Source: Escherichia coli
GTDB taxonomy: Bacteria; Pseudomonadota; Gammaproteobacteria; Enterobacterales; Enterobacteriaceae
Reading direction: 5' to 3' (one strand)
Assembly (NCBI RefSeq): GCF_003334255.1
Contig: NZ_QOWU01000092.1
Length of the DNA stretch: 8,303 bases
Shown: positions 1 to 8,303 of the stretch, one piece after another
Layout of the letters: each line of letters opens with the position of its first letter
Numbering within the stretch: the stretch's first letter is position 1
Made by a program: the position numbers and the translations under genes
Notes under the pieces: model-generated
The model's database searches: none
The model's input: the letters and a program-made list of their open reading frames with translations, nothing else
What the model was told of the DNA's origin: nothing

Positions 1-62
1 AATCGGTGGAGCTGCATGACAAAGTCATCGGGCATTATCTGAACATAAAACACTATCAATAA
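1..62 (+). CDS. insB: IS1 transposase InsB, 3' end only (partial, ...KSVELHDKVIGHYLNIKHYQ*)
   Basis: In-frame translation of 3..62 gives SVELHDKVIGHYLNIKHYQ followed by TAA at 60-62, matching the remembered InsB C-terminus. The 5' part lies outside the window. Confidence 0.75.
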   Translation, partial: SVELHDKVIGHYLNIKHYQ

Positions 63-77
63 GTTGGAGTCATTACC
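55..77. repeat. IS1 right terminal inverted repeat (IRR)
   Basis: ATCAATAAGTTGGAGTCATTACC at 55-77 is the reverse complement of the IS1 left IR, with 2 mismatches to GGTGATGCTGCCAACTTACTGAT. Confidence 0.85.
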
Positions 78-469
78 CTATCATTGTAGATAAAAGCTAT
101 GCCCCGAGCACCATTATGGTTGCACTGATTGTGATTCATAACTGTGCGGTGCTGGGATTATTTGCTCTGGAAAACATTACCATGGCAGAAATGTTCGGCT
201 GTAAAAACCGCTTTACCCGGATGGCTATTTCTAAAGAAATTGGTGGTCTTATCGCTTCCGGTTTTGGTCCTATCCTGGCGGGTATTTTCTGCACCATGAC
301 GGAATCCTGGTATCCGATCGCCATTATGATCATGGCATATTCAGTGATTGGTTTAATCTCTGCGCTGAAAATGCCAGAGGTGAAAGACCGTGATTTAAGT
401 GCGCTGGAAGACGCTGCGGAAGATCAACCGCGTGTTGTAAGAGCTGCGCAACCTTCCAGAAGTCTGTAA
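78..469 (+). pseudogene. ydfJ: MFS-type transporter YdfJ, C-terminal fragment truncated at its 5' side by IS1
   Basis: The reading frame is open from the IS1 junction (78) to TAA at 467-469, with no independent start or RBS at the junction. The translated tail (…GCKNRFTRMAISKEIGGLIASGFGPILAGIF…) is a hydrophobic, transporter-like C-terminus. It lies immediately upstream of ydfI, as ydfJ does in E. coli. Only about 130 codons remain. Confidence 0.75.
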
Positions 470-478
470 ACCCTTAAT

Positions 479-509
479 CCCTTCTCTTACCGGAGAGGGG
501 ATTTTTATT
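479..509 (+). terminator. Rho-independent terminator-like hairpin downstream of ydfJ'
   Basis: Arm CCCTTCTC (479-486), loop TTACCG, arm GAGAGGGG (493-500): 8 bp stem with one G-U pair, followed by ATTTTTATT (501-509). Confidence 0.55.
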
Positions 510-557
510 CATATAACAAAACATATAGCTTGCCATATTTATATTTAAGGAATTGTT

Positions 558-2018
558 ATGGGAAATAATTTGTTATCAGCAAAAGCGACACTCCCTGTTT
601 ATGATCGTAATAACCTGGCTCCAAGAATTGTTCATTTAGGCTTTGGTGCATTTCACCGTGCGCATCAGGGTGTGTATGCCGATATTCTTGCTACGGAACA
701 TTTCAGTGACTGGGGATATTATGAGGTCAACTTAATCGGCGGCGAACAGCAAATTGCCGATTTACAACAGCAAGATAATCTTTATACCGTTGCGGAAATG
801 TCGGCCGATGTGTGGACGGCTCGCGTCGTTGGCGTCGTTAAAAAAGCCTTGCACGTACAGATAGATGGCTTAGAAACCGTGTTGGCAGCGATGTGTGAAC
901 CGCAAATCGCGATTGTCTCTCTGACAATCACCGAAAAAGGGTATTTCCACTCTCCGGCGACCGGACAGTTAATGCTCGATCACCCGATGGTAGCTGCCGA
1001 CGTGCAAAATCCCCACCAGCCGAAAACAGCAACAGGGGTGATTGTTGAGGCGCTGGCTCGCCGTAAAGCGGCAGGACTTCCCGCATTTACCGTCATGTCA
1101 TGTGACAACATGCCAGAAAACGGTCATGTTATGCGTGACGTTGTCACTTCCTACGCACAAGCCGTTGATGTAAAACTGGCACAATGGATCGAAGATAACG
1201 TGACTTTCCCATCAACAATGGTGGACCGTATTGTGCCCGCAGTGACAGAGGATACGCTGGCGAAAATCGAACAACTTACCGGTGTGCGCGATCCTGCGGG
1301 CGTTGCCTGTGAACCTTTCCGCCAGTGGGTAATAGAAGATAACTTTGTTGCCGGACGTCCGGAATGGGAAAAAGCGGGAGCCGAACTGGTTAGCGATGTG
1401 CTGCCTTATGAAGAGATGAAGTTGCGCATGCTCAACGGCAGTCATTCATTCCTGGCGTATCTGGGGTATCTTGCAGGATATCAGCACATTAATGACTGTA
1501 TGGAAGATGAACATTATCGTTATGCGGCGTATGGCTTGATGTTGCAGGAACAAGCGCCGACGTTGAAAGTGCAGGGCGTTGATTTGCAAGATTACGCTAA
1601 CCGATTAATTGCACGCTATAGCAACCCGGCGTTACGTCATCGAACCTGGCAGATTGCGATGGATGGTAGCCAGAAATTGCCACAGCGGATGTTGGATTCT
1701 GTTCGCTGGCATCTGGCGCATGACAGCAAGTTCGATCTGCTGGCGCTGGGCGTCGCGGGTTGGATGCGTTATGTCGGTGGTGTTGATGAACAGGGAAATC
1801 CGATAGAAATCAGTGACCCACTGTTACCTGTTATTCAGAAGGCTGTACAAAGTAGTGCCGAAGGGAAAGCGCGCGTCCAGTCATTGCTGGCGATTAAGGC
1901 GATCTTTGGTGATGATTTGCCAGACAATAGTTTGTTTACTGCAAGAGTGACGGAAACGTACTTGTCTTTATTAGCGCATGGCGCGAAAGCGACCGTGGCA
2001 AAATATTCCGTGAAGTAA
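558..2018 (+). CDS. ydfI: Mannitol dehydrogenase family oxidoreductase (putative D-mannonate/polyol oxidoreductase)
   Basis: 486-aa ORF with ATG at 558 and AAGG Shine-Dalgarno 7 nt upstream. The N-terminal dinucleotide-binding motif [12 protein letters not shown] is typical of the mannitol dehydrogenase family. Length and sequence match remembered E. coli YdfI. Confidence 0.9.
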
Positions 2019-2024
2019 AAAAGC

Positions 2025-2045
2025 AATGCCGCCATCGGCGGCATT
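2025..2045 (-). terminator. Intrinsic terminator hairpin between convergent ydfI and ydfZ (mainly serving ydfZ)
   Basis: Perfect 9-bp arms AATGCCGCC / GGCGGCATT with a 3-nt loop (2025-2045). On the minus strand the hairpin is followed by a T-run (complement of AAAAAAG at 2017-2023). There is no T-run after it on the plus strand. Confidence 0.55.
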
Positions 2046-6698: not shown

Positions 6699-6973
6699 TG
6701 TTTTTTGTCCACGCTTTTATATGTAAAGGTGATTTGCTTTTTCTGTATGCTCGTCCAATATAATAATTTTCAAACATATAAATCCGATTATTCTGAAAAT
6801 ATGTTTAAGACTTTTCAATCTTCTTAACTTTAGTGAGTTAAATTCTCTGTATATTTGACAGCTAGTTGGCTGATTTTAAATGCCTTATAACAATTGGCAA
6901 TATTCTTATTTGGCAATTATAAAAATAGCAACCAGACTTAATAAGTCAAACCAAACGCAATTAAGGAGTTAGT

Positions 6974-7366
6974 ATGAAATTTCAGGCCATTGTATTAGCA
7001 AGTTTTCTTGTCATGCCTTATGCGTTGGCAGATGACCAGGGCGGTTTAAAACAGGATGCAGCGCCACCGCCGCCTCATGCAATAGAAGATGGCTATCGCG
7101 GAACCGATGATGCAAAAAAAATGACCGTTGATTTCGCAAAAACCATGCACGATGGCGCTTCGGTTTCACTACGCGGTAATTTGATTTCTCACAAAGGAGA
7201 GGACCGTTACGTTTTTCGCGATAAGAGCGGTGAAATTAATGTCGTTATTCCTGCGGCCGTCTTTGATGGACGAGAAGTTCAGCCGGACCAGATGATCAAC
7301 ATTAGTGGCAGTCTGGATAAGAAAAGCGCGCCGGCCGTCGTTCGGGTCACTCATTTGCAGAAATAA
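6974..7366 (+). CDS. ydeI: Periplasmic OB-fold (BOF/YgiW family) stress protein YdeI, with signal peptide
   Basis: 130-aa ORF with ATG at 6974 and strong AAGGAG Shine-Dalgarno at 6963-6968. N-terminal signal peptide [19 protein letters not shown] with an AxA cleavage site. Matches remembered E. coli YdeI. Confidence 0.88.
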
Positions 7367-7554
7367 AAATAAATTAGCCTGATGGCCTGAACTACTGGGC
7401 CATTAGGGTATTGGGTTATGCTATTTGTCATCCTTTTATTTACGATAATGCAGAGGTAATTTACAGAATTAAACACTTTTTTATCCGCTGATTTTGTTTT
7501 AAATCACAATGTTATCTCAGAGATGACTCATAACTTCGGATTTCTATGAAAATA

Positions 7555-7620
7555 TTGACGTAATTTTGCTTTTCTCTCGTTAGAATAGCGCGCACAAGGA
7601 ACTGTGAAAAAGGAGTGGCA
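7555..7620 (+). promoter_or_regulatory. dgcZ promoter/leader region with candidate CsrA-binding GGA motifs
   Basis: TTGACG (7555-7560) and TAGAAT (7581-7586) resemble -35/-10 hexamers, but the spacing is 20 bp, so the promoter assignment is uncertain. The leader contains ACAAGGA (7594-7600) and the Shine-Dalgarno AGGAG (7611-7615), both GGA motifs. dgcZ (ydeH) mRNA is a reported CsrA target. Confidence 0.4.
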
Positions 7621-8226
7621 ATGATCAAGAAGACAACGGAAATTGATGCCATCTTGTTAAATCTCAATAAGGCTATCGATGCCCACTACCAGTGGCTGGT
7701 GAGTATGTTTCACAGCGTGGTCGCGAGAGATGCCAGTAAGCCAGAAATAACGGATAACCATTCTTATGGACTGTGCCAGTTTGGTCGGTGGATTGATCAT
7801 CTGGGGCCACTCGATAACGATGAATTACCTTACGTTCGGCTAATGGATTCTGCCCATCAACATATGCATAACTGTGGTCGGGAATTAATGCTGGCTATTG
7901 TTGAAAATCACTGGCAGGACGCGCATTTCGACGCCTTTCAGGAGGGGTTGCTTTCTTTTACTGCGGCATTAACCGATTACAAAATTTATTTGCTGACGAT
8001 CCGTAGCAATATGGATGTTTTGACGGGATTGCCGGGTCGTCGGGTTCTTGATGAATCCTTTGATCATCAGTTACGCAACGCTGAGCCTCTGAATCTTTAT
8101 TTAATGTTGTTGGATATTGACCGATTTAAATTGGTTAATGATACCTACGGGCATTTAATCGGCGATGTAGTATTACGCACCCTGGCAACTTACTTAGCCA
8201 GTTGGACGCGTGATTACGAAACGGTT
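7621..8226 (+). pseudogene. dgcZ: Diguanylate cyclase DgcZ (YdeH) truncated by IS1 after codon 202: CZB zinc-sensor domain and start of GGDEF domain retained, GGEEF active site lost
   Basis: Translation from ATG 7621 (MIKKTTEIDAILLNLNKAIDAHYQWL…) matches remembered DgcZ, including zinc ligands H22, C52, H79, H83 and the RxxD I-site (RVLD). Native sequence ends at …TRDYETV at 8226, where IS1 begins. The frame then reads 8 IS1-encoded codons (GDAANLLI) to TAG at 8251-8253. In native DgcZ the next residues are YRYGGEEF. Confidence 0.85.
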
Positions 8227-8249
8227 GGTGATGCTGCCAACTTACTGAT
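8227..8249. repeat. IS1 left terminal inverted repeat (IRL)
   Basis: GGTGATGCTGCCAACTTACTGAT at 8227-8249. Confidence 0.85.
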
Positions 8250-8281
8250 TTAGTGTATGATGGTGTTTTTGAGGTGCTCCA

Positions 8282-8303
8282 GTGGCTTCTGTTTCTATCA
8301 GCT
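8282..8303 (+). CDS. insA: IS1 InsA, 5' end only (partial, (M)ASVSIS…)
   Basis: GTG GCT TCT GTT TCT ATC AGC translates to the remembered InsA N-terminus ASVSIS. Start-codon assignment is uncertain and the rest is outside the window. Confidence 0.5.

Follow-up and report, generated by a model that had tools for sequence, protein, structure and literature searches.

IS1 is a 768-bp insertion sequence that generates target duplications of 8-9 bp and, when paired, forms the composite transposon Tn9 (PMC12428005). Simple IS1 insertions are carried by stocks of Escherichia coli K-12 MG1655 (dgcJ::IS1, crl::IS1 and the IS1 upstream of flhDC), and dgcJ::IS1 of stock CGSC 7740 represents an IS1-inactivated c-di-GMP gene (PMC8669472). 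In strains of the O26:H11 / O103 group, such as 11368, the gene dgcZ is annotated as a split pseudogene and carries an IS1 as well.

The window analysed here, which is the whole stretch of 8,303 bp, was compared with these systems. Its terminal IS1 sequences are identical to those of the MG1655-stock insertions and again a c-di-GMP gene was hit, dgcZ here and dgcJ in CGSC 7740 (PMC8669472), while the target sites are different ones, ydfJ nt 901 and dgcZ nt 606. With Tn9 (IS1-cat-IS1) the window shares two direct IS1 ends around a passenger segment; however, the passenger is a native chromosomal segment standing at its own locus, a separate duplication belongs to the left IS1, and neither a sign of movement nor a plasmid copy was found. 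The window is very probably a contig from a K-12-like E. coli chromosome that received two separate in-place IS1 insertions in the same orientation, with core genes between them. The data show the identity of the IS1 ends and their orientation, a synteny that is native, a duplication at the left element, and junctions that recur in public assemblies.

Results

IS1 termini and gene content of the window

Alignment of the window borders with a 768-bp IS1 copy of E. coli 720632 (L001, 6447-7214) revealed 100% identity on the plus strand at both ends, window positions 1-77 matching IS1 nt 692-768 and positions 8227-8303 matching IS1 nt 1-77. The 77/77 match at each border includes the imperfect terminal inverted repeats of IS1 (GGTGATGCTGCCAACTTACTGAT... 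/ ...ATCAATAAGTTGGAGTCATTACC). A chance origin of two perfect 77-mers is out of the question. The right-hand IS1 end contains a promoter-like site at 8234-8261, detected by a promoter scan, and the GTG start of insA at 8282, as positioned from the L001 annotation. Rfam, promoter/terminator and repeat scans of the window returned nothing except the known genes and this insA promoter. The first-pass annotation was correct in placing IS1 ends of the same orientation at both borders, in naming ydfJ (entered at nt 893) and dgcZ (cut after codon 202) as the interrupted border genes, and in noting that the flanking 9-mers differ, CTATCATTG at 78-86 and GAAACGGTT at 8218-8226. A full-length IS1 of 768 bp has insA/insB' with a programmed -1 frameshift. 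Since 77 bp of each element are visible, their interior being collapsed in the assembly, the presence of two IS1 copies is what we infer for the DNA beyond the window, where both elements are presumably full length.

The features of the window are given in Table 1. The order of the inner block (3' part of ydfJ, ydfI, ydfZ, rspR, ydfG, dcp, ydeJ, ydeI, truncated dgcZ) is the K-12 gene order, and the block is collinear with the ydfJ-dgcZ region of K-12 MG1655, from which it differs by 3 SNPs in 8149 bp (99.96% identity). All seven inner genes are intact, a Qin-type prophage adjoins ydfJ as in K-12, and the block is 100% identical in several complete E. coli chromosomes of commensal or clinical origin.

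Table 1. Coordinates of the genes, IS1 ends and target-site sequences in the window
Feature	Position	Strand	Remarks
IS1 right end, nt 692-768	1..77	+	ends in IRR ...GGAGTCATTACC; part of the IS1 in ydfJ
CTATCATTG, target-site duplication (one copy), left IS1	78..86	+	same 9-mer precedes IRL in L008
ydfJ 3' fragment (MHS-family MFS transporter)	78..469	+	nt 893-1284 of the 1284-nt K-12-type remnant
ydfI, mannitol dehydrogenase family, intact	558..2018	+	486 aa; one difference from K-12, L17R
ydfZ, intact	2053..2256	-	67 aa
rspR (ydfH), GntR-family regulator, intact	2433..3119	-	228 aa
ydfG, NADP-dependent 3-hydroxy acid dehydrogenase, intact	3208..3954	-	248 aa; L004 positions 3250-3996 minus the 42-bp offset
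dcp, peptidyl-dipeptidase, intact	4091..6136	+	681 aa, identical to K-12
ydeJ, intact	6180..6698	-	172 aa, identical to K-12
ydeI, BOF/OB-fold stress protein, intact	6974..7366	+	130 aa
truncated dgcZ (ydeH)	7621..8253	+	codons 1-202 (7621-8226), 8 IS1 codons (GDAANLLI) and stop
GAAACGGTT, inner flank of the right IS1	8218..8226	+	presumed copy of the target-site duplication
IS1 left end, nt 1-77	8227..8303	+	IRL, insA promoter; part of the IS1 in dgcZ

Contig edges

Both window edges sit exactly 77 bp inside IS1 and the neighbouring public contig L008 ends at equal depth, a pattern indicative of contig ends at a collapsed repeat; no difference was found from repeat-bounded de Bruijn graph contigs, in which the k-mer overlap falls at collapsed IS copies. 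The window therefore looks like a complete short-read contig: multicopy IS1 was collapsed during assembly, so that on each side the contig stops after one k-mer (77 bp) of the element. The 77-bp IS1 ends are probably the k-mer overlap, the value of 77 for the assembler's k being suggested by common practice and not by metadata. A public contig of 8388 bp (L004) holds the whole window and stops in IS1 at both ends, after 119 and 120 bp. About five public contigs of this kind contain the whole block with IS1 at both ends, and other assemblies of the block end 119/120 bp or 25-28 bp into IS1. The suspicion, raised in the earlier annotation, that the edges could be collapsed repeats is right as far as their position goes; the junctions are nevertheless real, since they recur in independent public assemblies. 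Among 5,426 complete E. coli genomes none has either IS1 junction, and closed-genome confirmation of the full arrangement is absent from that set.

The insertion in ydfJ

The ydfJ part of the window is identical to ydfJ of E. coli 720632 and leaves a residual ORF of 117 aa (116-469). As in K-12, ydfJ is a remnant that had earlier been truncated by the Qin prophage. The 39.6-kb contig L008 (GCA_002475415.1, NOHS01000046.1) terminates in ...GCCAATGCTTTCTATCATTG / GGTGATGCTGCC..., that is, in the 5' part of ydfJ followed by CTATCATTG and then by the IS1 left end, of which exactly 77 bp are present and whose orientation is the same. The matching 77-bp ends and the matching K-12-like background suggest that L008 and the window come from one genome. 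If L008 represents the same genome or clone, the 9-bp target duplication CTATCATTG is seen on both sides of the left IS1, at window positions 78-86 and at the end of L008. A simple insertion predicts just such a reciprocal junction as L008 shows, and the left IS1 is accordingly a plain transposition with a 9-bp duplication. The proposal that this IS1 replaces the 5' part of ydfJ is thus wrong, because that part lies across the IS1 in L008 with CTATCATTG duplicated.

Other strains carry an inverted IS1 IRR next to the ydfJ site CTATCATTG, and the 2.9-kb contig L009 has an IRR at both ends; depending on the strain, the site holds IS1 in either orientation. The 117-aa C-terminal YdfJ ORF was rejected as a marker of the junction: over 1000 blocks have it as a called gene, and it lacks junction specificity since gene calling often breaks ydfJ into two.

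The insertion in dgcZ

Comparison with full-length DgcZ showed that the protein is cut after codon 202 of 296, four codons upstream of the GGEEF active site. The truncated product retains the CZB domain, which senses zinc, as well as the beginning of the GGDEF domain, and the RYGGEEF active site is gone. Owing to the loss of the GGEEF catalytic motif the enzyme should be inactive, and the source strain should be without DgcZ diguanylate cyclase activity. The exact 210-aa DgcZ-IS1 product is encoded on 8-10 public contigs and is present in nr, labelled E. coli.

Contig L003 has the same dgcZ::IS1 junction with an uninterrupted, K-12-type ydfJ, which indicates that the two IS1 insertions are separable events. 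The right IS1 is most likely a simple insertion like the left one and presumably carries a target duplication. The far junction predicted for it, IRR (...GGAGTCATTACC; ...AAGTTGGAGTCATTACC) followed by GAAACGGTT and TATCGCTACGGGGGCGAAG (TATCGC...), was not recovered in low-power searches. An exact-protein look-up of the 48-aa ORF of the DgcZ C-terminus returned just error-ridden metagenomic contigs without IS1, the same look-up gave no record for the 37-aa ORF that alone crosses the far junction (L or M start), and a scan for IS1-IRR, 0-12 nt and dgcZ 3' sequence yielded 0 matches in a metagenome set that is not the source of the window. These searches could hardly succeed, because no ORF of callable length crosses the junction and the window does not come from the scanned metagenomes.

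The dgcZ::IS1 allele of E. coli O26:H11 / O103 has the same orientation and likewise lies just before the GGEEF motif. Its insertion point is 5 bp further downstream, its duplication is of 8 bp (GTTTATCG) and its IS1 variant is just 94% identical; it is an independent event. Two backgrounds 1.3% apart carry the dgcZ insertion at precisely the same nucleotide, and in all three cases (these two backgrounds and the O26/O103 clade) the insertion is just upstream of the GGEEF motif. The supplementary tables of Hawkey et al. 2020 (PMC7373316) contain no ydeH, dgcZ or ydfJ entry.

Discussion

According to the preferred explanation the source chromosome is that of a phylogroup-A, K-12-like E. coli, in which one IS1 very probably entered a ydfJ remnant already cut by the Qin prophage and another dgcZ, both in the same orientation; the 8149 bp that separate them are core genes left unchanged. 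The statement in the first-pass annotation that direct IS1 repeats are substrates for deletion or amplification is valid in principle, and this pair could recombine with either outcome for the block; nothing shows that such recombination happened or that the block was at any time mobile as one piece. The same annotation described the architecture as formally that of a Tn9-type composite transposon, which holds in the formal sense of a direct IS1 pair around a passenger segment. That the block arrived at, or moved from, the locus as one Tn9-like unit is hardly credible, given that the passenger is the resident ydfJ-dgcZ segment, in K-12 order and with 3 SNPs, that a 9-bp duplication flanks the left IS1 itself and is not one shared with the far flank of the right IS1, and that the right insertion occurs alone in the relative L003. 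Insertion of a whole unit would entail a shared outer duplication and a foreign passenger, and neither was seen. In PLSDB no IS1-bounded block was found on another replicon; matches to the block were confined to mislabelled pieces of chromosome, never bounded by IS1, and pBone4_4 and the 4.8-Mb 'plasmids' were rejected as plasmid matches for this reason. A contig running from an IS1 tail to an IS1 head is also the product expected in an assembly graph if both window ends lay on one IS1 copy, the contig being the repeat unit of a tandem amplification or of an excised circle. This is quite improbable, since the chromosomal junction of the ydfJ 5' part with IS1 is known from L008 with a matching k-mer overlap, and the recurrence of this single contig in about five independent public assemblies agrees with a stable arrangement on the chromosome.

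Adjacent deletions are among the known effects of IS1, and the right IS1 might mark an IS1-mediated adjacent deletion or inversion, the DNA beyond it not being the 3' end of dgcZ. The reciprocal right junction was not recovered, and the inverted IRR at the ydfJ site of other strains (L009) points to rearrangement or re-insertion around the locus; on the other side, the far-junction searches had little chance of success, and in complete genomes an annotated IS1 in dgcZ (H6 type, O26:H11 and WCHEC040047) is followed by the 3' remnant of dgcZ, the target duplication having been read directly for O26:H11 only. We consider this alternative unlikely. An origin of the window in Shigella or a Shigella-like, IS-laden and pseudogene-rich lineage, as the dense IS1 load had suggested to the first-pass annotation, would agree with two IS1 junctions in 8.3 kb and with their absence from the 5,426 complete genomes labelled E. 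coli. In recent GTDB releases Shigella is folded into the single E. coli species cluster; if so, the representative genomes of GTDB would include about one E. coli, and a strain-specific junction would not be expected among them. Such an origin is nevertheless very improbable and the suggestion is not sustained: the block has 3 differences from K-12 in 8149 bp and 100% identity with several E. coli, its seven inner genes are intact, the prophage beside ydfJ is Qin-type and K-12-like, and the nr entries of the exact fusion protein are named E. coli. In S. flexneri 2457T dgcZ is deleted, and a partial DgcZ of S. sonnei in the cluster extends past the insertion site, to residue 243. Furthermore, about 10-20 IS1 matches per E. 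coli genome are ordinary (median about 10).

The reading as two separate in-place insertions makes the finding an ordinary one, namely routine IS1 insertions at contig ends and no new mobile element. Two independent IS1 insertions trivially yield the architecture of a 'composite transposon', and IS1 at the edges of a window can be a mere contig break at a collapsed repeat; the significance beyond bookkeeping is small. Behind the reuse of both sites there might be a chromosomal hot spot of IS1, strong and so far undescribed, or a selection that repeatedly favoured DgcZ loss in natural E. coli, a suggestion that we regard as doubtful. Taken with several other independent IS1 alleles, the insertion hints that IS1 frequently disrupts or targets dgcZ. 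The sole consequence of a biological kind is that this E. coli clone probably has a null allele of DgcZ, a diguanylate cyclase that senses zinc; loss of DgcZ, if selected, would mean less c-di-GMP and poly-GlcNAc biofilm and more motility.

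Gene content of the block and its IS1 ends

Alignment of the 8149-bp inner block with E. coli K-12 MG1655 indicated that gene order and orientation are those of b1543-b1535, with three differences over the 8149 bp in an ungapped comparison, one of them L17R in YdfI. The Dcp and YdeJ proteins are the same as in MG1655, none of the seven internal genes is disrupted, and the block is 100% identical in several complete E. coli chromosomes. The terminal bases of the window were 100% identical to the 768-bp IS1 of E. coli 720632 (L001, 6447-7214), the left end (...AAGTTGGAGTCATTACC) to nt 692-768 and the right end (GGTGATGCTGCCAACTTACTG...) to nt 1-77. 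Both lie on the same strand, and since perfect 77-bp matches are far beyond chance, IS1 in direct orientation at both ends, as proposed in the first-pass annotation, is confirmed, together with its flanking 9-mers. Rfam, promoter/terminator and repeat scans of the window added solely the insA promoter within the IS1 left end.

Features of the window and dgcZ target positions in related contigs
Feature	Sequence	Position	Strand	State
IS1 right end (left IS1)	window	1-77		
Flanking 9-mer, left IS1	window	78-86		
ydfJ, 3' 392 nt	window			left border of inner block
ydfI	window			intact
ydfZ	window		-	intact
rspR/ydfH	window		-	intact
ydfG	window		-	intact
dcp	window			intact
ydeJ	window		-	intact
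ydeI	window			intact
dgcZ, first 606 nt	window			right border of inner block
dgcZ target (flanking 9-mer, right IS1)	window	8218-8226		
IS1 left end (right IS1)	window	8227-8303		
dgcZ target	L003	9260-9268		
dgcZ target	L007	3113-3133		

The block recurs in assemblies as an isolated contig whose ends vary solely in their reach into IS1: an 8388-bp contig (GCA_965136505.1) includes the entire window and ends 119 and 120 bp into IS1, about four more contigs are similar, and Logan contigs end 25-28 bp into IS1. The dgcZ reading frame runs on into IS1 to give a 210-aa product ending ...YETV-GDAANLLI, and this exact product was found in about 10 public contigs, the 8388-bp whole contig among them. 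A de Bruijn assembler produces such variable reach where a multicopy repeat has collapsed, and E. coli genomes have IS1-end matches at a median of 10 places each. Assemblers are often run with 77 as the largest k, and on that basis the 77 bp at both window ends are best read as k-mer overlap. The IS1 junctions are real, and the IS1 copies themselves fall outside the window data.

The IS1 insertion in ydfJ

Were the left IS1 a simple insertion that duplicated 9 bp, its far side would consist of the ydfJ 5' part (...CTATCATTG) followed by GGTGATGC..., encoding YdfJ residues 1-300, Gly and a stop. The exact 301-aa product was present among public contigs, and the 39.6-kb contig L008 (GCA_002475415.1, NOHS01000046.1) terminates in ...GCCAATGCTTTCTATCATTG joined to GGTGATGCTGCC...; here the IS1 left end extends for exactly 77 bp and is oriented as in the window. 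Upstream on L008 lie lambdoid tail genes, tfaQ, pinQ, ydfK and ynfT, and the contig is 99.9% identical to MG1655 across 4456 shared bp (tail fibre genes through ydfJ). Judging from the matching 77-bp ends and background, the window and L008 very probably belong to the same assembly. It follows from this junction and background that the left IS1 entered by plain insertion, with CTATCATTG as the duplicated target, into a ydfJ that was already a Qin-prophage-truncated remnant, as in K-12. The earlier proposal that the left copy replaced the 5' part of ydfJ does not hold, since that part is retained on L008, joined through the duplication to the IS1 left end.

A 117-aa C-terminal YdfJ ORF (window 116-469; L023-L032) is a separate gene call in more than 1000 collection blocks, and many closed genomes among them have ydfJ split between a call of roughly 300-341 aa and one of 117 aa. 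Disruption of the gene appears to extend to many lineages of E. coli, beyond the Qin prophage insertion of K-12.

The IS1 insertion in dgcZ

The right IS1 enters dgcZ past codon 202, between ...TRDYETV and YRYGGEEF, four residues ahead of G206GEEF; in the truncated protein the CZB domain and the start of the GGDEF domain remain, and the catalytic motif is lost. The GG[D/E]EF motif has an established role in cyclase activity, and truncated DgcZ, deprived of it, should have lost this activity. The reciprocal junction of the right IS1 was not recovered by ORF look-ups, no gene-caller-reportable ORF crossing it, and a metagenome pattern scan for it gave no matches; this copy might mark an adjacent deletion or inversion, which we consider improbable. 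In complete genomes with annotated IS1 insertions within dgcZ (H6 type, O26:H11, WCHEC040047) the 3' gene remnant comes next, the target duplication having been read directly for O26:H11 only, and the right IS1 is most likely a simple insertion.

Independence of the insertions and reuse of their sites

Contig L003 (SRR7358289) carries a dgcZ::IS1 junction identical to that of the window together with a K-12-type ydfJ that is not interrupted. Its block and that of the window differ by 1.3%, the closest difference lying 190 bp away from the junction; contig L005 has the L003 background and L006 that of the window. The left and right insertions are independent. The right junction was matched at 93% identity in 85 complete genomes, with O26:H11, O103 and related strains among the matches listed; in the one genome read, O26:H11 11368, a 94%-identical IS1 variant lies 5 bp downstream with duplication GTTTATCG. 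The window, L003-background and 11368 insertions are all just upstream of the GGEEF codons, and further dgcZ sites in other complete genomes lie at nt ~261, nt ~846 and the extreme 3' end.

At the ydfJ site, which corresponds to window 78-86, ...CTATCATTG runs into an inverted IS1 right end in four more contigs from other strains (L009-L012), the orientation opposite to that of the window, which suggests independent insertion or IS1-IS1 inversion. L009, of 2.9 kb (junction 2837-2978), carries pinQ'-ydfK-ynfT-ydfJ' with IS1 right ends on both sides. Both window junctions and the L008 junction were absent from 5,426 complete E. coli genomes. IS1 site preference is established; selection against DgcZ may also contribute to the recurrent dgcZ insertion.

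A 249-aa partial DgcZ ending ...HINITV occurs in 170 contigs, the longest of 11 kb, and a 243-aa partial DgcZ of the same protein cluster (P0018, P0017) carries an S. sonnei label. These recurrent ends suggest further IS or contig-break dgcZ alleles in common clones.

Origin of the arrangement

Tn9 has the structure IS1-cat-IS1 (PMC12428005). The window shares its formal architecture, direct IS1 ends around a passenger, and to that extent the Tn9-like description stands. However, its passenger is native DNA at the native locus, the left IS1 is flanked by a duplication of its own, and one of the two insertions is also found alone; in PLSDB the block was found on mislabelled chromosome fragments only. 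On these grounds a composite-transposon origin was rejected. Recombination between the 768-bp direct repeats, with deletion or amplification, or co-mobilisation is a potential of the arrangement.

The conjugative IncY plasmid RCS32TR557_p (L036, NZ_LT985234.1) carries at 2260-7831 an rspA-MFS transporter-ydfI-rspR segment, which matches the block over ydfI-rspR (window 558-3171) at ~96% identity and adjoins ISKpn26, an element unrelated to IS1. Here a plasmid carries a copy of one part of the chromosomal sugar-acid locus; a ~96%-identical ydfI-rspR segment is also found on at least two other plasmids of 80-96 kb, the annotation being read for the IncY plasmid only. Plasmid-filed records among H103-H107 (e.g. 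CP054253.1, NZ_OL790696.1) appear to be whole or fragmentary chromosomes: H103-H105 have lengths of 4.8-4.9 Mb, and on pBone4_4 (CP054253.1; 252 kb, without a typed replicon) speG...marC follow the order of the chromosome.

The suggestion of a Shigella-like lineage was not supported. The sequence is K-12-like with a Qin-type neighbour, and the nr entries for the exact DgcZ'-IS1 fusion protein (CAM3336671.1 and CUK19701.1) are both named E. coli. S. flexneri 2457T is without dgcZ (PMC11327459), and the S. sonnei partial DgcZ of the cluster continues beyond the insertion site of the window. With about 21-27 places matching an IS1 end in each of the E. coli chromosomes that share the block at 100% identity, a pair of IS1 insertions within 9 kb calls for no particular explanation. 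The window shows an E. coli chromosome into which IS1 inserted twice, in ordinary and independent events, and which appears here as a contig with a collapsed repeat at its borders. The phenomenon is already known, and the small interest that is left lies in the repeated targeting of dgcZ and ydfJ at these sites.
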